From a virus: 64,000 bases of DNA. Below the pieces are notes generated by a model. It was given only the letters and a program-made list of their open reading frames with translations. It had not been told where the DNA came from and made no database searches. The DNA lies in the IMG/VR virus record IMGVR_UViG_3300025195_000002. One strand, written 5' to 3'. Positions 3,117 through 25,716 of this stretch are shown here, piece by piece (the first letter of the stretch is position 1; each line of letters opens with the position of its first letter). Position numbers and translations under genes: made by a program.

Positions 3117-3148
3117 GCTAGGAGGAATTCCTCCTAGCTTTATGCCGT
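3117..3148 (+). terminator. Hairpin + TATGCCGT element
   Basis: GCTAGGAGG-AATT-CCTCCTAGC, then TT, then TATGCCGT (3141-3148). Confidence 0.7.
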
Positions 3149-3520: not shown

Positions 3521-5056
3521 ATGCCACGTATTGCGATTGATTGCGGCGATAGCTACGATAGCGTTATCCGCCCTACTGTTTTGACGGTAGTAGAACAAGT
3601 AAAGAAGGTGACGGGACTAGGTCGCGTCAAAACGCTATTTACGGGTGATCCAAATAACACACCTCAAGTAGGTAGTCTGATAGACAATCCAGAAAAAGAT
3701 GTTACCTTTACTAACCAGGAATACCTACAGTTAGAAGTACGTACGGAGTATATGGACTCTGATCTTTTAACGAATAATGTTTTTAATCGAAACAACATTC
3801 CTCTTTTTAGAGACATTGACTTAGGTGTGTATATGGCACCGGTAGTCGGACATACCCGTGCTACAATCAGTGTCCGCTATAAAGCGCAAAGTCGTAACGA
3901 TGCAGATAGATGGCTATCTGAAATAAAGCGTCGAACTGCCCAAGGATTTAAAGAACTGACTCATGATGTTGAGTATCATTATCTTATCCCACGCGAGCTA
4001 TTGGTGATCTTAGACCAGATCCATAAAAAACGAGAAGCGGTAGCAGGGTATGGTGAGGATCTCAATCGCTACCTCACCGATCATTTCCATGAGAAAGTTA
4101 CCTGGTTCACGAATCAAAGTGGGCAGCGTAAGGCTTTGGGTGTCAGAGAGAAACAGACGGGGATATTGGGATACTTTAATTTCGATTCCTTGCCTGAAAT
4201 TGAAAAAGGTGAAACAGGTAACTGGATAAGTCAGTTTGATTACATTGTTGAATTTGACAGACCACACTCAGTAGTGATGCAATATCCACTGGTTGTCCAT
4301 AACCAGCTACTTGACACTAAGTATTTTGATGACACTATAGACTTCAACCAAACCCTTGAACTTTATCTAAGTAGTGTTTTTAATCAAGGGATGGATGTCA
4401 CTGTTAATCGCCATCGCCTACCTGCGCTGTCTACTTTATTAGGTTACGCTGTACCTGCTTTTGATGAATGGCTACCGCAAGAGGTCCCTATGTCTACAAC
4501 GACAATGGCTAGAATATTACTGGCTGTGGATGTCGATAACCCTCGCTATTTATGTAACATTGGAGAGCTAGGAGACTTTGCATTAGTTGATGAGGTAATT
4601 ACGTATCTGAAACGCCGTCATGACTTTGCGACAACACTCAAAGCGTCTCCAATATTCTTTAGTCTGTATCAAGATAATACCAGGATGTCTGATACGGTGA
4701 TGCAGATGGATGATCAAGGTAATTTATTTACAACGGTTGATCTATCATTACGTCGAGTATATCACCTTAGAGTAGGTATCTTTAACGATCTAAGTCTGTT
4801 AAATGAGAAAGTATTAGAAGATCTCAGAATGGATGGTGAATTTGCCAAGATACTATTGATCGCACTTGAACCATCATTGCGTGATGATCCATTACTTGAG
4901 TTATTACCCGATGGCCGTTTACCTAAACGTAACTTTTGGGATGCCATTGCCCGTATTAAAGGAACGAACCGACACTACAAGAATAAAATTGAAGTCAATC
5001 GGTTTACTGTTGCCAGTCTATTAATAACCTCGCGTAGACGCTCGCGATACGTGTAA
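3521..5056 (+). CDS. Conserved phiKZ-like virion structural protein
   Basis: 511 aa; first of four contiguous genes after the internal-head paralogues, matching phiKZ gp98-101 synteny as recalled. Confidence 0.55.
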   Translation: MPRIAIDCGDSYDSVIRPTVLTVVEQVKKVTGLGRVKTLFTGDPNNTPQVGSLIDNPEKDVTFTNQEYLQLEVRTEYMDSDLLTNNVFNRNNIPLFRDIDLGVYMAPVVGHTRATISVRYKAQSRNDADRWLSEIKRRTAQGFKELTHDVEYHYLIPRELLVILDQIHKKREAVAGYGEDLNRYLTDHFHEKVTWFTNQSGQRKALGVREKQTGILGYFNFDSLPEIEKGETGNWISQFDYIVEFDRPHSVVMQYPLVVHNQLLDTKYFDDTIDFNQTLELYLSSVFNQGMDVTVNRHRLPALSTLLGYAVPAFDEWLPQEVPMSTTTMARILLAVDVDNPRYLCNIGELGDFALVDEVITYLKRRHDFATTLKASPIFFSLYQDNTRMSDTVMQMDDQGNLFTTVDLSLRRVYHLRVGIFNDLSLLNEKVLEDLRMDGEFAKILLIALEPSLRDDPLLELLPDGRLPKRNFWDAIARIKGTNRHYKNKIEVNRFTVASLLITSRRRSRYV

Positions 5057-5068
5057 GGAGAGTTTATC

Positions 5069-6442
5069 ATGCCGTTAATGGGACAACCTACCAAACCCAG
5101 CGCCTCTGAAGAGACGGAGTTAAAAAAGAAAACGGATGCAATTAATAAAATCGTAACGCCTATATCTCACCCAGAAGAGTCTCAGAGAGCTTTTCTTGAA
5201 GAGGTAATAGATACGCATCATTTACCAACAAACGCCCTTCTAACGCATATAGAGGGCTCAGATTGGACGGTTAACTATTACTCCCAGGTGTTAAGTCAGG
5301 GATCTGAAGCTAATCCCCAGTCTTTATCCCAAGATCCTGTTCACCAGCAGTACAGTTTAATTGTTGGGTTAGAGATTAAAGTTACCTCAGCTTTAGAACA
5401 GGCCCAGAATACAGAAGATGGTACGTTTACAGTAACGGGTACAGCAACAACATTACCTGGTCTGGTCCCTATGTCAGGGGATATGTTCACTGCTGATGTA
5501 GGTGATGGTCGAGTCGGTGTATTCACGCTAACCTCTTCTCGTCGTATGAGCATGATGCGTGATACAGTCCATGAGATCGAGTACATCATGACCGACTACC
5601 TTACTGCTGGGGTAGAAGATGATCTAAGTAGTAAAGTGGTTGAAACCCGTCACTTTAATATGGACTACTTATTAAACGGTGAAGACCCTTTCTTAGATAC
5701 TGTTGATTTTAACCTGGAAGGGCAGTTAAAGGAAAGTTATTACCGAATGATTTCGTGGTATGTTCAGTTATTTTACAGCCGTGAATATAAAACACTGCTA
5801 GTTCCTGATAGCCAAGGTGTATTAACGTCTACCTACGACCCTAACGTGTTGAAGTTATTTCACTTAATCATCTCGCGCAATGACCTTGGACATGGTCCTT
5901 ATCCCACCATTAAACAAGTAGGGGGTGATGTTGAAACTGACACACTCACGTTATGGGATGCGTTAGTTAAACGTGACCCAGACATTTTACGCTTTGCTGC
6001 AACCCATTCTCGCAGAGTGCTTGCATCGGATTTTTCTATCCAACCCTTCTTCTCATCTATTGCTGTTACTAACATTAAACATGTTATTTGGCCTGCATCG
6101 GAGTTAACTCACAAAGAGAAGCGGGGCGGGGTAAATAGGAACGATCTACTCGCTGCGATTCCTGAATCTACCGTTTTAAATTATGGTTCACCAGATACGG
6201 TTATGTTGCGTGAACCCGATATAGATAGCTTCTATGTATTTAGTAAGCCGTTTTATGAGGGTGATGCGGAACAGATGTCTCAGCTGGAATATATGGTTGA
6301 TCAGTATTTGGATGGTGATGCACTTAACTTAAGTGACATTAAAGACATCATCGACGCGCTTTATGATGCAACCCCACTACAGCAATTCTACTATGTCCCG
6401 GTTATGCTAGTACTTATTAAAGTCTTTGTTAGGAATCTTTAA
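5069..6442 (+). CDS. Conserved phiKZ-like virion structural protein
   Basis: 457 aa; 'LLTHIEGSDWTVNYYSQ' and 'GDMFTADVGDGRVGVF' motifs typical of this family; RBS AAGGAG. Confidence 0.6.
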   Translation: MPLMGQPTKPSASEETELKKKTDAINKIVTPISHPEESQRAFLEEVIDTHHLPTNALLTHIEGSDWTVNYYSQVLSQGSEANPQSLSQDPVHQQYSLIVGLEIKVTSALEQAQNTEDGTFTVTGTATTLPGLVPMSGDMFTADVGDGRVGVFTLTSSRRMSMMRDTVHEIEYIMTDYLTAGVEDDLSSKVVETRHFNMDYLLNGEDPFLDTVDFNLEGQLKESYYRMISWYVQLFYSREYKTLLVPDSQGVLTSTYDPNVLKLFHLIISRNDLGHGPYPTIKQVGGDVETDTLTLWDALVKRDPDILRFAATHSRRVLASDFSIQPFFSSIAVTNIKHVIWPASELTHKEKRGGVNRNDLLAAIPESTVLNYGSPDTVMLREPDIDSFYVFSKPFYEGDAEQMSQLEYMVDQYLDGDALNLSDIKDIIDALYDATPLQQFYYVPVMLVLIKVFVRNL

Positions 6443-6444
6443 CC

Positions 6445-7017
6445 ATGCCAAGTCAACCTAAATCAAAACACACTAATGCTTATAAGTTGTTTAACTACCC
6501 GTTTATGATTTGGGTGGCTAACATCTATATGGTTAGTGATGTGGAAGTAGAACAGATTGGTACATTCTCCACCGGTAATACTATTAAAGATGAGAACCTT
6601 GCTCGTCAGGAATGTCGTAGGATGGTAACTATTGCCAAGATGGCTGAAATTGTAGACATGGGAGGTAGCTTTAGTTTTATCAATGGTGTCGATGCACAAC
6701 GGGCTTATGATATTATTGTAGGACACTTAAGTGATTGGGTTGATGCCATGAACCATCGGGTTAACATGAGACGCCCACCCAAAGAAGATTTACGTAAACT
6801 CAATGAACTTGCCGAGTTGCTCTATACCAGCGCACGTCTTAAAATCATTGAAGATACGTCAGTGCCTACCCTGGTTCAAAAGCTGCTTAACATGTCACCC
6901 ATGGCTGCGCCTACTAAATTGGTCCGTGATGGAGTAGCAGAGAAACATAGACACCCCATTGCCGATATGATTGCAGACGGTCAGGAACTTAAGGAAATGA
7001 GAAGATGGCGGGAATAG
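6445..7017 (+). CDS. Conserved phiKZ-like hypothetical protein
   Basis: 190 aa, translationally coupled; 'RRPPKEDLRKLNELAELLY' motif. Confidence 0.5.
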   Translation: MPSQPKSKHTNAYKLFNYPFMIWVANIYMVSDVEVEQIGTFSTGNTIKDENLARQECRRMVTIAKMAEIVDMGGSFSFINGVDAQRAYDIIVGHLSDWVDAMNHRVNMRRPPKEDLRKLNELAELLYTSARLKIIEDTSVPTLVQKLLNMSPMAAPTKLVRDGVAEKHRHPIADMIADGQELKEMRRWRE

Positions 7018-8441
7018 TAGATGATAGTGTTTTATATAACGACGTCATTGATATCGTCACCTCACCGTATTCGAATGTAGATGACCGTTACCGACCTGAC
7101 AAACAGTACAAATATCGCCTTGAGATGTATGTTGGGGATAAAGCAATTGAGGCGATTAAGGTACTGGCTGTTGATATTAAACGCGATTTTCAAAATGAGT
7201 TTAGTCAATCGATGATCGTTGAAGCGGCGGTTGGCCTTGGTACCTACACCCATGAGATCTTTCCTAATAAACAAGGATTGACCGCTAAGTTGTATCGACA
7301 GTTGGTATTAACAGCTAGCAATGGTAAGGTGGTTAGTGATGCAGCTGAGGTCTGTTGGGAATATCAGTGTATTATTGTGGGTGAGCAATCACCAGCAATG
7401 GTAGCGTCAACAGAGGCTACGGCCGATAAAGAGACCGGTGATCGTTCTGATATCGTCTCTATTGAACTCCAGCTTATTGAACAGATCGTTGATGAGTTTC
7501 GTGTAGTTGAGGTAGGGGGTATCTTTAAGGACTGTACCGTTAAGCAAGTCTTAGAGTTGTTTTTTGCTAACGTTCAGAATGTCGATACACCTCCCTCTAA
7601 TCTAACCGTCAGTGCCGATGATTACTTAGAATGGAATGTACGCAATGTGGTAAGTGGTGCAGATATTGTTGATCCTGACAACATCCGTACTTACGACCAC
7701 ATCCTTATCCCCCACGGTACAAGGTTGGTTGATTTACCTAACTACCTTCAGAAAACCTACGGTGTTTATAAAACAGGAATAGGTTATTTCTTTCAGAAAA
7801 CGATCTGGTTCATTTTTCCTGCTTACCATACTCGTCGTTATGAAGATGAGGCGCAAACACTCACTATTGCCAATATACCTGCTAATAGAATGCCTGGTAT
7901 CGAAAAGACCTACAAGGTAAGAGATCCTATCAGTCACTATGGTAAGGTCTATATGCTGGCAACCGGTGAAGTAGTACAGAAAGATCACTCTGAGCGTCGT
8001 CAGATGAATGAAGGGAATGCTTACTACCACGTTAATGCTGACCGTATCATGGATGTCTTTTCTACAACAAGTGCTAATGTTACAACTATAGTAGACGAGG
8101 ATCATGAGGTTCAAGCTGCAGTAGAGAGTCGTATCCATACTAACTTCCTTAAGTTAAGTAAAGATGCCATTACGCATAACGCGTTTGTTGAAAACAGCAG
8201 GCTATCTAGACAAGTAGGCTCTCATGTTCAAATACGTTGGGAGAATGCAGATATTGACCAGGTGTATCCTGGTATGCCTGTGCTGCTACTCTACATCTTA
8301 GATGGTAACGTGGCTAAACTTTACGGCACATTACAGCGTATCGACCAGGACTCTACCGCTATAGAACCTGGACCTACCGAACACCGTCATTTAAGAAACG
8401 CGGTTATTACCGTTTGGGTAGAGCGTGATAAAACCGATTAA
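7005..8441 (+). CDS. Virion structural protein, probable baseplate hub/tail-tip component
   Basis: 478 aa; 'HILIPHGTRLVDLPNYLQKTYGVY..GIGYF' and C-terminal 'W..AD...YPGMPV' motifs of the phiKZ gp101-like family. Confidence 0.55.
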   Translation: MAGIVDDSVLYNDVIDIVTSPYSNVDDRYRPDKQYKYRLEMYVGDKAIEAIKVLAVDIKRDFQNEFSQSMIVEAAVGLGTYTHEIFPNKQGLTAKLYRQLVLTASNGKVVSDAAEVCWEYQCIIVGEQSPAMVASTEATADKETGDRSDIVSIELQLIEQIVDEFRVVEVGGIFKDCTVKQVLELFFANVQNVDTPPSNLTVSADDYLEWNVRNVVSGADIVDPDNIRTYDHILIPHGTRLVDLPNYLQKTYGVYKTGIGYFFQKTIWFIFPAYHTRRYEDEAQTLTIANIPANRMPGIEKTYKVRDPISHYGKVYMLATGEVVQKDHSERRQMNEGNAYYHVNADRIMDVFSTTSANVTTIVDEDHEVQAAVESRIHTNFLKLSKDAITHNAFVENSRLSRQVGSHVQIRWENADIDQVYPGMPVLLLYILDGNVAKLYGTLQRIDQDSTAIEPGPTEHRHLRNAVITVWVERDKTD

Positions 8442-8447
8442 CCTAAA

Positions 8448-8460
8448 CACCTACATTACT
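8448..8460 (+). promoter_or_regulatory. Early-promoter-like motif CACCTACATTACT
   Basis: One mismatch from the phiKZ early consensus TATATTAC; identical 13-mer at 25901; immediately upstream of the RBS of 8475. Confidence 0.55.
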
Positions 8461-8474
8461 AAAAGGAGACTATC

Positions 8475-8627
8475 GTGAGTGATGGTTTTGATGATTTTGA
8501 TTTTGATATCGACGAAGCAGCACTAGAGCGTGCAAATGCAGAACGTATGGCAGAGCAAGATGAAGAAGCGAAAGCTTTAACGGAAGGCGATGTCGATGGC
8601 TGTGAAGGCGGTGCGTGTAAAATCTAA
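8475..8627 (+). CDS. 50-aa acidic mini-protein ending in an NrdA-type redox tail (DGCEGGACKI); absent from the ORF track
   Basis: AAGGAG RBS, GTG start, TAA stop, own hairpin terminator. Translation: MSDGFDDFDFDIDEAALERANAERMAEQDEEAKALTEGDVDGCEGGACKI. Confidence 0.85.
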   Translation: MSDGFDDFDFDIDEAALERANAERMAEQDEEAKALTEGDVDGCEGGACKI

Positions 8628-8636
8628 AGAACTATA

Positions 8637-8668
8637 GGGAAGACTTTCGGGTCTTCCCGTTATGCCCT
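8637..8668 (+). terminator. Hairpin + TATGCCCT element
   Basis: GGGAAGAC-TTTCGG-GTCTTCCC, then GT, then TATGCCCT. Confidence 0.7.
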
Positions 8669-10373: not shown

Positions 10374-10991
10374 ATGAGCAACAATGCCAATTTAATAACT
10401 GTAAGGCAGGAAGCCAACAAAGCCCGGATGTTTTTAAAGCAGTTTCTTGATCCGTCTTTGGACAGACGAGCAAGTAATTTCATCCAGGGATTCAACAACG
10501 TTTACGAAGCATCGCTCAGACAACTAGAAAACTTCCAATTCCGCAACACCTCATCGGTTACACTAACACACGTTTTTAATACTGCTGAGATCAACGCGTT
10601 GGGTCTAAGTGAACCTGCCGCGCGTGTAACTATGGCTGTAGTTAAACACCTGCCATACACGGCTATGCAAAATGCCATATATCAAGATCTTGTTAATGAA
10701 ATTGTAATGTTACCAGATAACATTCCTACCGTTAAAATAGGTCGTGGTATCTTTGCTAGGAAAAGGAAGTCAGTTATTAACTTCAACGTGATGCTGCAGG
10801 ATAGGGTATTAGATTGGTATTTGCGCCATATATTAATACTGGGTAACATCCTCATACTCGAACGACACGTCTGTACAGGTAAGCCATCGACCGCTTTACT
10901 AAAGGCTTGTGCGGAACGTGCAAAGAAGTTTGCTGTGCTATATCAAGAATTATTAAAACGCTCACCCCTTTTAAAGGATATAATAAAATGA
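10374..10991 (+). CDS. Hypothetical protein
   Basis: 205-aa ORF with AAGGA RBS; its stop overlaps the start of the next gene. Confidence 0.6.
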   Translation: MSNNANLITVRQEANKARMFLKQFLDPSLDRRASNFIQGFNNVYEASLRQLENFQFRNTSSVTLTHVFNTAEINALGLSEPAARVTMAVVKHLPYTAMQNAIYQDLVNEIVMLPDNIPTVKIGRGIFARKRKSVINFNVMLQDRVLDWYLRHILILGNILILERHVCTGKPSTALLKACAERAKKFAVLYQELLKRSPLLKDIIK

Positions 10992-11761
10992 AACAAAAAT
11001 CAGTAGGACTATTCACCATACTACTAGCTACCATTGCTATTGGTATTATCATGTCTGCAAGTACCGGTTATGCAGCGGACATTCCTAAGTCATTCCCTAC
11101 CAGTGTAAAATGGATGGTAGAGGACATCCACAAACCCCCATTGAACCAGACGTTTTATTGTGGGTGTGCTTTTAAAGATAATAAAAGTGTGGATTATTCA
11201 GACTGTGACTATCAGCCTGTTAATATAAACGGCACGCGCGCTAACCGCATTGAAGCTGAACATGCCATGCCTGCGGTTATGTTAGGTGGTGGGTTAATGT
11301 GTTGGGGTGATACACGTAAAGATATTCCTGCGTGTTATGAGTCGGATGGGGATCTGTTATCATCTAGAGCGTGTTGCGAGAAAACTAACATGATCTACGA
11401 GCGGGCGCAAAACGACTTAGTGAATCTAGTGCCCGCCATTGGCGAGCTTAATAACCTACGTTCAGACAAGTTGTTTTCAAATATACATGGTGAGGGGCGT
11501 GACTTTGGTAGTTGTGATGTTGAAGTCAACCAAGAATATGTAGAGGTGCGTGACGTTATGCGTGGGGATGTAGCCCGCATCTTTCTGTATATGTTAGATG
11601 CCTACTCATTACCACTTGATATTGTAATAAGCGATAAAGAACTCATGCATCTCTATTATTGGGATTTAAAAGACCCCGTGAGTGATGATGAGCGTTTACG
11701 TAATCAGCGTATCTGTGAAAAACAAGGTAGTGGTAACCACTACGTAGGTGAATGTGAATAA
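10988..11761 (+). CDS. endA: Endonuclease I family (EndA/Dns-like His-Me nuclease) with N-terminal signal peptide
   Basis: Motifs FYCGC, RIEAEHAMPA (cf. RIEWEHVVPA), DLVNLVPAIGELNNLRSD, RGDVARIFLYM, ERLRNQRI..QG..NHYV. Start reassigned to the ATG at 10988 (MKQKSVGLFTILLATIAIGIIMSASTGYA). Confidence 0.85.
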   Translation: MKQKSVGLFTILLATIAIGIIMSASTGYAADIPKSFPTSVKWMVEDIHKPPLNQTFYCGCAFKDNKSVDYSDCDYQPVNINGTRANRIEAEHAMPAVMLGGGLMCWGDTRKDIPACYESDGDLLSSRACCEKTNMIYERAQNDLVNLVPAIGELNNLRSDKLFSNIHGEGRDFGSCDVEVNQEYVEVRDVMRGDVARIFLYMLDAYSLPLDIVISDKELMHLYYWDLKDPVSDDERLRNQRICEKQGSGNHYVGECE

Positions 11762-12547: not shown

Positions 12548-12833
12548 ACTTCTTTTATTAGTGGCATTATTGTGGGTGGCGTACGAGTACTATAAAAAAT
12601 GCACGCCAGTCATCGCCGACATGCGCATCCTAAAAGATACCAGCATGACGTACCAGGAATGGAACACCAACGTCTTTAATCCCGCACTTGTCAAAGCTTA
12701 TCAAACTAAACGCCATGTTAAAGTTATTCGCTATGAGGATGACACTAATCGTGGTAGAATTAACGATAAGTTTGAGATAGACAAGCATTTATTAGAATGG
12801 ATGCGACCTCTACCTAAAGTAGACTTTGAATAA
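12540..12833 (+). CDS. Small membrane-anchored protein
   Basis: Start moved to the ATG at 12540 (GAGG RBS); N-terminal hydrophobic MFKLLLLVALLWVAY. Confidence 0.55.
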   Translation: MFKLLLLVALLWVAYEYYKKCTPVIADMRILKDTSMTYQEWNTNVFNPALVKAYQTKRHVKVIRYEDDTNRGRINDKFEIDKHLLEWMRPLPKVDFE

Positions 12834-12921
12834 ACTAAGAAGGGTTAACGCCCTTCTTTTTTTGCCGTCAATGTTGTATTTAACAGCCCTTAGGGATCTT
12901 ATAATACTAAGGAGAGTGACT

Positions 12922-13401
12922 ATGGGCGCTGAAGCTATAACGATGTTTAGGGGCGAATATTCGTTCTTAAGTAACTTTTACATATTAGAAACCCCGCTTC
13001 CTGAAAACGCTATATTTAAAACACGCTCACATCCCCTGTTTTACTTTGCGTCCTCTGAACACGCTTACGTAGCCTGTAAGACTGATAATGAAGAGATTCG
13101 CAGATATATTGCAAGTCTATATAAACCCGGTGAAGTTAAACGCTATGGTCGATCTATCGACATCGTAGACAATTGGGATGATATCAGACAAGCATGTATG
13201 TGGGATGTGTTATATGCAAAATTCACCTTTAATCCCCATTTAAAAGAAAAGCTACTTGCTACTGGTGACCGAGAACTAGTCGAAGGGAATTGGCATGGTG
13301 ATAAATACTGGGGCGTGTGTCTGCGCACCGGGGAAGGCAACAACCATTTAGGACGTATGCTCATGGAGCTGCGTGATTACTTTAGAGATATAGAGGAATA
13401 A
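12922..13401 (+). CDS. NADAR (YbiA-like) family protein
   Basis: Motifs FRGEYSFLSNFY, SSEHAY.ACK, W......M..VLYAKF..NP.LKEKLLATGDRELVEGN.HGD.YWG, GEG.N.LGRMLMELR. Start at ATG 12922 behind AAGGAG; the longer start lies inside a terminator. Confidence 0.9.
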   Translation: MGAEAITMFRGEYSFLSNFYILETPLPENAIFKTRSHPLFYFASSEHAYVACKTDNEEIRRYIASLYKPGEVKRYGRSIDIVDNWDDIRQACMWDVLYAKFTFNPHLKEKLLATGDRELVEGNWHGDKYWGVCLRTGEGNNHLGRMLMELRDYFRDIEE

Positions 13402-17177: not shown

Positions 17178-17825
17178 ATGTTAACTAAAAAACGTTTACT
17201 TCCTAAATGCCTAACCGCCACCCGTTTAAGAATAGGGGCGTTGGAGATACGATGGGCAATACCTAAGTTTGATCGTTCGCTACATTTTCTATTAACGCGT
17301 ACCACCAAACAAATGATCAGTTGGGATGAGGGAAGAAATGACATTACGTTTTCCCTTTACTGGCTATGTATTACTATTCATTTAGGTAATTGGGCCTGTA
17401 CAGAAACCCTTAATTCAGATCAAGAAAGTTTTTGGTACGGTGTTTTTATTAGAAGCGAATCGCTACACTTCTATCTAGGAGGACGGGGTTCTAAATTAGT
17501 AGACTTACCATGGCGGGTGAGTGCTGTTGAGCCTTATAAGGAACATACGCTTGCTGAGACCGTTGGTCTACATTACCATGACCGACCTAACCTTAATAGC
17601 GTGGATGCCAATGTGCGGGTCTACTATATTAAGGTTGCCCCTATCGGATTTCGCTGGATCCCTTTTCTATCGTGGAAGATTTACCGCGCAGAAATTGATT
17701 TTGCCGAGGAAGTAGGCGTCGGTGTGGGTAGTTGGAAAGGTGGGACGTTAAGCACTAGTTTTATGATCCCTAATAAAATGCAATGCGCAGAAGCACTGCG
17801 TTATTATGAAAATAATCACGCATGA
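17178..17825 (+). CDS. Hypothetical protein
   Basis: 215 aa, aromatic-rich, AAGGA RBS; flanked by T-tract terminators. Confidence 0.6.
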   Translation: MLTKKRLLPKCLTATRLRIGALEIRWAIPKFDRSLHFLLTRTTKQMISWDEGRNDITFSLYWLCITIHLGNWACTETLNSDQESFWYGVFIRSESLHFYLGGRGSKLVDLPWRVSAVEPYKEHTLAETVGLHYHDRPNLNSVDANVRVYYIKVAPIGFRWIPFLSWKIYRAEIDFAEEVGVGVGSWKGGTLSTSFMIPNKMQCAEALRYYENNHA

Positions 17826-23553: not shown

Positions 23554-25716
23554 ATGTCCTTATTAAGCATCAAGAAAAAGGCAACCGGTTTAGGTGCCGC
23601 TAAAATGAGCATCCACACGCTTCTGCAGGAACAGGGTGCTGAAATGTCTAACCAGTCTATTGCCAACAACCTGGTATCTCTGGAATCATTGGACGATCAC
23701 GCTCGCTCTGATCTGGAAACGTCTTTTGAACATTGTTCAAATGAACTGAAGACTATCCTGTCTGAAACCATGGGTGAAGGGTTTGAGGTAAGTGACATCG
23801 GTCTGGAAGCCGCTGCCATCACTACTTTGGCAATCGGTAACCCAGCTGCGTACATGCAGTCTGCAACTCGCATTGGTATTGAGGGTATGATTGAATTACC
23901 TTCTTACGGTACTGCCGGTTCAATGGACTATCGTCTGTCTCCGTCAAATGAAGCATTCGACGAAGCTGAACTGCGTAAATTTGCTCCACACTCAATTGTA
24001 TTCAACGCCCTGGCCGCTGTGCAGGACCCGTTTGCTGAAGCATTCTTCCCGACGTACGTTATGTCGCCTGACAATGCTGGCGCTGAAGTATCTGTTCAAC
24101 GTACCATGGTTTTCAATGAAGTTAGCCGTAGCCCTACTGGTCAAGTTACTAACTTCAATAAAGTTAACCTGGTTGAAGCTGTTCAGGATGCCAAAGTCCT
24201 TGAAAACCAAACTACTGCATTGGTTCCAGTTTACCTGGCCGATGACAGCCGCGCTGAATACTTTGTTGACACTGACGTCCTTGCCCCTGTTGATACTAAA
24301 GTTGATGGCGACGAGTTCCAAACTTCTGCACTGCGCATCGATGCACAAATGGACCTGGTTGCAATGGCAACTTCTCCAAACCGCATCAACGCTCAGATCG
24401 ACAGCACTGACTCAATCGACGGTCGTGTTGAACTGAAAACTGTTTACGTTCGTGTACGTGATGCAGCCAACCTGGCTGATCCTGCTACTGGTAACGACGA
24501 AGTATTATCTATCAGCGTTAAAGGTCTGCCACGCACTACCTTCCAGCCGTCTGCTGAAGGCGATAGCCGTGAGATGACTCTTACTTTTGCTAACAACGCT
24601 CTGTTGTTAAGCGATGCGACCAAAGCTGTTGATGGTTCTGCTGCTGACGCGCTGTCTGGTCTGTCTGGTTACACTGCATCTGTTGATATTAAACTGAATG
24701 GTACTATCAACGTTGAAACCGGTGCTCTTGAACTGAACGCGTCTCCAATGCGTGTTAATGGTCTGGTTGATGCAAGCGGTACAAATATCGCTACTGCAAC
24801 TGGTGCTGGTAAGACAGCAATTGATAGCTTCTCTATGGAAGTTATCGGCTACAGCCTGGATGCTCGCCTGACTAATGCGAACCGTCGTACTCGTGGTATC
24901 CTGATCGATCGTACTGAAGTTAAAGAGCGTTACACTGTACCACTGGGTGCACCAATCTCTGCACCTCAGCCAATTCATGGTTCAAGTGACAGCGCTTCTG
25001 ATCTTCGCGCTCTGGTAACTACTGCACGTACTCGTACGTCTAACAACGCTGTGACCACGCTGCTTAACTATGTTGACAGCCTGAAATCAACTGTTGCTGT
25101 TGCCGCTGCGACGGGTGTTACTCCACAAGTACAAGGTATTGGCCGTCTTCTGGTTAAGCCTTACTTCCAGGAAGAAACTATCGATGCAGTTCAGGTAATC
25201 AACTCTACCAAGTCACACGAGAAAGCACAAGACTTCTCTGCGGTATTGGTTGATGCAATCCGTCAAATTGCTTACAAGATGATGGATCGTTCAAACTACG
25301 CTGCAGCGTTGGAAATGGAAACCGGCGGTGCCAACATTAAGCCTAAGTTGATCATCGGTACAGATAACGTTATCGCTCAGCACATCATGGTTTCTGGTGA
25401 TGATCGCACTGCAAGCATCGGCATGGACTTTGAAGTTGTATCTTCACCTGACTCTCGTATGAGTGGTAAGATCGTTCTTGGTTTCGGTCGCGGTGCAAGC
25501 GGTAAGCCTGACGCACTTGGTTTTGGTACTCACTTCTACATGCCTGAGCTTACTAGCACAGCGCAAGTATCACGTGACAATGCTACTACCAAAGAAACTC
25601 AGGTACAGCCTCGTGATCTTCACGTTCCTCATCTGCCAGTATTGGCTGTGATCAACGTTGAGAACATCGACCAGGTCTTCACCGATTACATTAAAGGTGT
25701 TCCTGCACGTAGCTAA
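23554..25716 (+). CDS. Major capsid protein (phiKZ gp120-like)
   Basis: 720 aa; propeptide with SLE/GLE/SNE cleavage motifs; 'QDPFAEAFFPT', 'N.N.R.RG.L.D', 'TKETQVQPR.LH.PHLPVL'; strongly biased codon usage. Confidence 0.9.
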   Translation: MSLLSIKKKATGLGAAKMSIHTLLQEQGAEMSNQSIANNLVSLESLDDHARSDLETSFEHCSNELKTILSETMGEGFEVSDIGLEAAAITTLAIGNPAAYMQSATRIGIEGMIELPSYGTAGSMDYRLSPSNEAFDEAELRKFAPHSIVFNALAAVQDPFAEAFFPTYVMSPDNAGAEVSVQRTMVFNEVSRSPTGQVTNFNKVNLVEAVQDAKVLENQTTALVPVYLADDSRAEYFVDTDVLAPVDTKVDGDEFQTSALRIDAQMDLVAMATSPNRINAQIDSTDSIDGRVELKTVYVRVRDAANLADPATGNDEVLSISVKGLPRTTFQPSAEGDSREMTLTFANNALLLSDATKAVDGSAADALSGLSGYTASVDIKLNGTINVETGALELNASPMRVNGLVDASGTNIATATGAGKTAIDSFSMEVIGYSLDARLTNANRRTRGILIDRTEVKERYTVPLGAPISAPQPIHGSSDSASDLRALVTTARTRTSNNAVTTLLNYVDSLKSTVAVAAATGVTPQVQGIGRLLVKPYFQEETIDAVQVINSTKSHEKAQDFSAVLVDAIRQIAYKMMDRSNYAAALEMETGGANIKPKLIIGTDNVIAQHIMVSGDDRTASIGMDFEVVSSPDSRMSGKIVLGFGRGASGKPDALGFGTHFYMPELTSTAQVSRDNATTKETQVQPRDLHVPHLPVLAVINVENIDQVFTDYIKGVPARS

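Follow-up and report, generated by a model that had tools for sequence, protein, structure and literature searches.

A small phage peptide family resembling both flexible tails of class Ia ribonucleotide reductase

DNA precursors are made de novo by one enzyme only, ribonucleotide reductase (RNR), which is among the best-studied of all. Two kinds of small ligand offer parallels to the peptide described here. Sml1 of yeast and Spd1 of Schizosaccharomyces pombe are small, largely disordered RNR regulators that act on the large subunit, and Sml1 reportedly competes with the C-terminal tail of R1. Synthetic inhibitors modelled on the R2 C-terminus (hepta- and nonapeptides, for the HSV and mammalian enzymes) occupy the docking cleft of the alpha subunit by means of the beta-tail sequence. 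We know of no described natural free-standing tail peptide that acts on RNR. In the enzyme itself the C-terminus of beta (NrdB) tethers that subunit to a cleft on alpha (NrdA) near the opening of the active site, and the cycle by which RNR is re-reduced is well established (PMC11903788). With the alpha tail (E. coli NrdA, residues ~737-761, with Cys754 and Cys759; chain B of 1QFN) our 50-residue peptide has in common an acidic lead-in, the CX4C spacing and a K-I end, the last 8-12 residues being identical or one off; it differs in being free-standing, without the catalytic barrel, in belonging to phages that lack RNR, and in adding an N-terminal motif and a helix. The docking peptide of NrdB (ending D-[FL]-x-x-F-x-L) is reproduced as an octapeptide at the N-terminus of the clade to which the window belongs (the window being the whole stretch of 64,000 nucleotides analysed here, from IMG/VR virus record IMGVR_UViG_3300025195_000002), and two nearest homologues, P0004 and P0007, score like native NrdB ends. 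The peptide's motif, however, is N-terminal or internal, that of the window ends in F and not L, and there is no ferritin-like domain. Sml1 and Spd1, compared by description only, resemble the peptide in being small, largely disordered and directed at the large subunit (its putative target), but they are eukaryotic, inhibitory and devoid of a redox Cys pair. The synthetic R2 peptides are man-made and address a single site; that of the phage occurs in nature and brings the alpha redox tail as well.

The window holds a PhiKZ-type major capsid gene (23554-25716), whose best cultured relatives show ~38% capsid identity, and is a divergent phiKZ-like jumbo phage; its G+C content of 42% and its presence in seawater samples fit a marine gammaproteobacterial host. 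The peptide gene (Table 1) runs from a GTG start to a TAA stop, and its AAGGAG is kept in six relatives (L010-L013, L025, L032). The earlier note, made from the letters of the DNA, had called this 50-aa ORF together with its ribosome-binding site, and both were read in the sequence as claimed. An identical peptide is carried by 195 contigs, Tara samples among them. A chance ORF can be ruled out, because homologues with diverged bodies retain the ending C-x-G-G-A-C-[KR]-I, and short ORFs with the same ending recur. No family in Pfam, NCBIfam or PHROGs matched the window peptide, and megablast of the region against cultured phages returned no near-identical relative.

Table 1. Features of the window and of related loci and peptides. 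Coordinates are those of the window unless a locus or residue numbers are given.
Feature	Position	Strand	Remarks
Shine-Dalgarno AAGGAG	8463..8468	+	6 nt 5' of GTG; read directly
Acidic 50-aa peptide gene	8475..8627	+	net charge about -13
DGFDDFDF, residues 3-10, candidate mimic of the octapeptide by which the NrdB (beta) C-terminus docks	8481..8504	+	PSSM, 11.9 bits, p=0.034 (shuffle)
Predicted single helix, residues 14-38, putative spacer	8514..8588	+	about 37 A if helical
DGCEGGACKI, residues 41-50, copy of the class Ia NrdA (alpha) redox tail	8595..8624	+	Cys43 and Cys48
GC hairpin (8 bp stem) then TTATGCC, terminator-like intergenic cassette	8637..8666	+	compensatory stem changes
Endonuclease I homologue	10907-11761		upstream of thyA and the dCTP-deaminase-like gene; the nuclease also adjoins the peptide gene in L009 and L013
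NADAR-domain protein	12826-13401		upstream of thyA
thyA	13404
dCTP-deaminase-like gene	14504
P0004, nearest homologue, NrdB-like motif	residues 2-9		24.8 bits, p<=0.0005 (shuffle)
P0007, nearest homologue, NrdB-like motif	residues 3-10		20.5 bits, p<=0.0005 (shuffle)
42-aa Neisseriaceae member	L099:5063-5191		also loci L071, L074, L100, L109, L128, L136, L141, L161, L162
Tail module of roughly 45 aa fused to unrelated orphan domains	L033:1193-1582; L014:1052-1840; L045:3664-4743		also P0063-P0083

The same note saw the gene as a dedicated monocistron with a promoter-like motif of its own at 8448 and a terminator, a picture of which the terminator stands and the rest is not supported. The hairpin proper (8637-8658) is conserved, pairing being kept through compensatory stem changes in L012, L009 and L002. 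Five cassettes of a hairpin followed by C-N-TTATGCC occur in the window (3138, 8658, 11784, 15158 and 38257), all on the plus strand and intergenic, against 1.8 expected, and probably serve the phage as a terminator or combined terminator-promoter signal; their TATG core is reminiscent of phiKZ-type late promoters. A sigma-70 scan of the plus strand, by a model that says little for a phiKZ-like phage, found no promoter-like site. Since only 33 nt separate the upstream gene from the peptide ORF and no cassette lies between them (the preceding one is that at 3138), the peptide gene seems to close a transcription unit that runs from 3521 to 8627. In four marine metatranscriptome studies there are contigs that span the gene, two of them beginning at 8311 and 8314; they give a weak hint of expression, as such contigs cannot prove transcription and may stem from DNA carried over. 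The region is also mosaic: from ~8150 onwards identity to relatives is 95-100%, compared with about 70% upstream, the boundary (~8100-8200) falling inside the 3' end of a 478-aa gene, and the high identity to L010, L011 and L032 continues to at least 9770. The 100% identity of the peptide to these three is therefore not a sign of selection on this gene, the whole block being 95-100% identical.

The C-terminal ten residues copy the redox tail of NrdA. The R1 C-terminus of E. coli is DGCESGACKI, as the earlier note gave it, and R1 chains in the PDB read QDDGCESGACKI at residues 750-761. In a pattern scan, CEGGACKI proved to be the native NrdA end in >100 bacterial species, and in many gamma- and beta-proteobacteria NrdA ends natively in DGCEGGACKI. 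The matches in bacterial genomes were mostly the ends of NrdA genes of roughly 760 aa, from Pseudoalteromonas, Shewanella, Moritella, Colwellia, Thalassotalea, Oleispira, Yersinia, Pectobacterium, Proteus, Photorhabdus, Gilliamella and others. A profile of the family, run against all PDB sequences, matched nothing but the C-termini of RNR alpha subunits and the 25-mer of R1 in complex with Grx1, where a single-sequence phmmer search with the peptide had found nothing, and tblastn of NrdA against the window gave one alignment only (8583-8624, NrdA residues 748-761). The mimicry of the NrdA redox tail that the earlier note put forward is supported and turns out stronger than proposed. Of NrdA the peptide has the CX4C tail ending in K-I; the ten-stranded barrel (PF02867), the ATP-cone and the all-alpha domains are absent from it according to Pfam and tblastn. 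Nor does it belong with the thioredoxin-fold redoxins (thioredoxin, Trx; glutaredoxin, Grx; NrdH), its spacing being CX4C and not CxxC, its model a single helix, and Pfam and NCBIfam giving no match. Even very divergent members (alignment A3) all keep the two Cys, the distance between them and the K-I end, which accords with redox chemistry and not with simple blocking.

The other end of the peptide, whose acidic-aromatic run the earlier note had guessed to be a docking motif, resembles the C-terminal octapeptide of NrdB, and at the level of sequence the guess is supported. Native NrdB C-termini from the same host loci end acidic-aromatic, for example ...DFDDFDL and ...DLSNFQL. With a PSSM derived from 41 distinct native NrdB ends we scored the N-terminal stretches of 24 diverse members, each against 2000 shuffles. 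Besides the three peptides of Table 1, nine further members reached p<0.04; 12 of the 24, the Alexandravirus and Neisseria forms included, were not significant. The Fisher combined p over the 24 is 1.6e-10, members not being fully independent, and the likeness to NrdB ends exceeds what composition would give. The chromosomal peptide of Moraxella has IDLDDLNL, and its own NrdB ends in VDLDDFEL. The beta-like motif is internal or N-terminal and has no free C-terminal carboxylate, in contrast to the native NrdB motif at the extreme C-terminus, and the ferritin-like di-iron domain of NrdB (PF00268) is absent from the 50 residues. This sequence match between the N-terminus of the window's clade and the docking octapeptide is a new observation. 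AlphaFold2, run on alignment A3, predicts a helix over residues 14-38 (block pLDDT 77-81) with flexible ends that bear the two mimic motifs, and the linker from motif to first Cys measures 22-34 residues across members.

Word-based and exhaustive HMMER searches recovered homologues of 46-54 aa with diverged bodies, all true ones keeping C-x-G-G-A-C-[KR]-I. In one exception, P0005, residues such as a translated sequencing adapter would give stand in place of the tail, and this is probably an assembly artefact and not a tail-less variant. A degenerate DNA pattern (the last eight residues plus stop codon) found 63 contigs in IMG/VR, 27 of which are full NrdA gene ends and 36 short or orphan ORFs. 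The search across phages by tBLASTn that the earlier note had suggested placed the family in about 100 cultured-phage records, every one annotated hypothetical, among them Erwinia and Dickeya Alexandravirus, Derbicusvirus, Cronobacter CR5, Salmonella SPN3US-like phages, Klebsiella phages and a Vibrio podophage of the Zobellviridae. Tail variants include CESGACKI, CEDGACKI, CTGGACKI, CAGGACKI and CSGGACKI, and L008 differs from its homologues L035 and L066 in the tail solely by G against S. The module also stands at the C-terminus of larger orphan proteins (80-360 aa), and its fusion to unrelated orphan domains, one of them a domain of the N4 gp49 / Sf6 gp66 family, suggests a portable tag. Pfam gave nothing meaningful on ten longer fused forms, and the ESM Atlas no usable match for the fused proteins of 263 and 360 aa. 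PHROGs 14561, 24014 and 38753, of unknown function, cover some (Erwinia-type) members, and neither Pfam nor NCBIfam has a model for the family. The shared features are a short acidic body, a conserved acidic-hydrophobic N-terminal motif and the invariant C-x-G-G-A-C-[KR]-I end. A description of the family was not found in the literature searched, and stand-alone RNR-tail peptides are, as regards that literature, an undescribed and widespread family of small proteins.

The phages that carry the peptide have no RNR of their own. A PF02867 search found the large subunit in none of 30 carrier genomes, nor in the window, and scored all five NrdA-bearing viral records used as positive control; the 30 include two genomes of ~190 kb bounded by terminal repeats, one of them 78-79% identical to the window, and at least 13 judged 90% or more complete. 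Likewise NrdB (PF00268), NrdD, Grx and Trx were found in none of five carriers checked (three close relatives of the window, from its clade, and two Erwinia jumbo phages). Conversely, each of five NrdA-bearing phage genomes has the tail motif once, at its own NrdA end, and no second tail. To set this in proportion, an NrdA homologue is present in no fewer than 5000 of 50,697 phage records. The proposal of a split RNR, in which the peptide serves in trans a phage NrdA lacking its tail, fails on these counts, there being no carrier among the 30 in which a tail-less NrdA could co-occur with the peptide. Since the carriers lack RNR and a split phage enzyme is refuted, the peptide must address host proteins. 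The immediate neighbours in the window are virion-type or unknown proteins. Several lineages have thyA, dcd, tmk or a dCMP deaminase in the vicinity of the peptide gene: in Dickeya phage AD1 these are a CMP deaminase and thyA, in Cronobacter phage CR5 thyA, and on a 206-kb contig a single gene (a 155-aa ORF) separates the peptide gene from a thymidylate kinase upstream. Across lineages no phage neighbour is universal and no conserved partner gene was found, which points to a host target. Further along the window, a 215-aa ORF (17178-17825) matches the CBASS inhibitor family Acb3 with its C-terminal 57 residues (E 1.3e-13).

Judged by sequence, the peptide mimics both flexible tails, alpha and beta, of the host's class Ia RNR, and we read it as a putative two-ended ligand of host NrdA, in which a helical spacer joins a beta-tail mimic to an alpha redox tail. 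We infer binding, redox cycling and a direction of effect along the following lines. The N-terminal motif, imitating the C-terminal peptide of NrdB, would dock in the NrdB cleft on NrdA and the peptide would in this way tether itself to the host enzyme, the helix of about 25 residues acting as spacer between the two motifs. Host thioredoxin or glutaredoxin would recharge the dithiol, which would re-reduce the active-site disulfide of NrdA in trans, and such extra, pre-reduced 'swinging arms' would raise host RNR throughput for an RNR-less phage with a genome of ~190 kb. To this tethered, Trx/Grx-recharged trans-reductant we give a probability of roughly 40%. We prefer it because both Cys are invariant, the carriers have no other de novo source of dNTPs, and the neighbouring genes all promote dNTP supply; of the earlier note's proposals we favour a booster of host RNR turnover over a decoy. 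Against it stand the weakness of the beta-like motif in the window (p=0.034), which has no free carboxylate, and the high local concentration at which NrdA already holds its own tail.

The effect may also run the other way, towards inhibition, since filling the beta cleft is a classical route to RNR inhibitors. With the same two-ended binding the beta-like motif might displace NrdB and the alpha-like tail block the re-reduction path, which would make the peptide a natural counterpart of the R2 C-terminal peptide inhibitors and of yeast Sml1, and the phage might profit from damped dNTP surges, which trigger DRT defences, or from a host shut-off during which it uses salvaged host DNA. We regard this outcome, the main rival, as rather unlikely, even though beta-tail peptides inhibit class I RNR, the defences DRT2, DRT4 and DRT9 are triggered by NrdAB-driven rises in dNTPs, and the window has genes for salvage-type enzymes and for a homologue of Endonuclease I; inhibition would cut off the only de novo source of dNTPs that RNR-less carriers have, an inhibitor has no need of two invariant Cys, and it sits poorly with neighbours that favour dNTP supply.

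Chromosomal copies show that the family is not solely viral and make a broader redox role possible. In Neisseria and Eikenella a core gene, annotated hypothetical, encodes a 42-aa member ~70 bp upstream of iscU and after iscS, and through this copy Fe-S assembly may be connected with RNR or with thiol redox. The copy of Moraxella follows an OYE-type flavin reductase, that of Thalassolituus a CysJ-like diflavin reductase, and another follows ubiK on one bacterial contig; these contexts are not beside nrdAB. In Neisseria, Moraxella and Thalassolituus the NrdA tail is intact and one residue off the tail of the species' own peptide, that of Moraxella additionally ending KL rather than KI. Such contexts, and the intact NrdA tails, would suit a general free dithiol carrier, recharged by Trx or Grx, with an acceptor other than RNR, for example in persulfide or Fe-S chemistry at IscS/IscU, its NrdA-like tail merely reflecting recognition by the same reductants. 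We consider such a carrier distinctly unlikely: it leaves unexplained the NrdB-like N-terminal motif, the Moraxella match to its own NrdB end and the exclusion with phage RNR, and the phage copies lie beside nucleotide-metabolism genes and not Fe-S genes. Still less probable is a decoy that soaks up host Trx or Grx or distracts a sensor or defence protein recognising the NrdA tail. That tail is a known Trx/Grx substrate (chain B of 1QFN is matched by the family profile) and small acidic phage proteins are often mimics, but a reduced dithiol peptide would need to be oxidised by something before it could be a sink for Trx, there is no known defence system that reads the NrdA tail, and the beta-like motif would have no explanation. 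We give hardly any credence to a detached tail for a tail-less phage NrdA or a RiPP precursor (FxLD-like leader, Cys core), the latter suggested by one UniRef auto-name ('FxLD family lantipeptide') on a Neisseria member, since no enzyme or maturase recurs as neighbour across 27 loci, the core is usually without Ser or Thr, and the module also ends large proteins.

The trans-reductant reading has a wider form, for which we put the chances only slightly short of even: phages and some bacteria would make free 'swinging-arm' peptides that dock on NrdA and exchange electrons with it, a portable and hitherto unrecognised layer of RNR control through which RNR-less phages would drive host dNTP synthesis, the module serving also as a C-terminal tag. 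The family spans cultured jumbo phages (Erwinia, Dickeya, Cronobacter, Salmonella), abundant marine phages and the Neisseria isc operon, and its occurrence in well-known cultured jumbo phages makes it directly testable with existing assays for E. coli-type NrdAB, Trx and Grx. If the peptide is a booster, it would show how RNR-less phages cover their need for dNTPs without carrying NrdAB, whose genes set off DRT-type defences; if it is an inhibitor, it would offer a natural scaffold for a two-site RNR inhibitor. Either effect would also bear on how access to the active site is divided between the alpha and beta tails.

One phage NrdA met in the course of the analysis (L031:1811-4621, 937 aa) ends in CEGGACKI and has a barrel match that is broken between profile positions 390 and 390-522; the interruption is probably an intein-like insertion.
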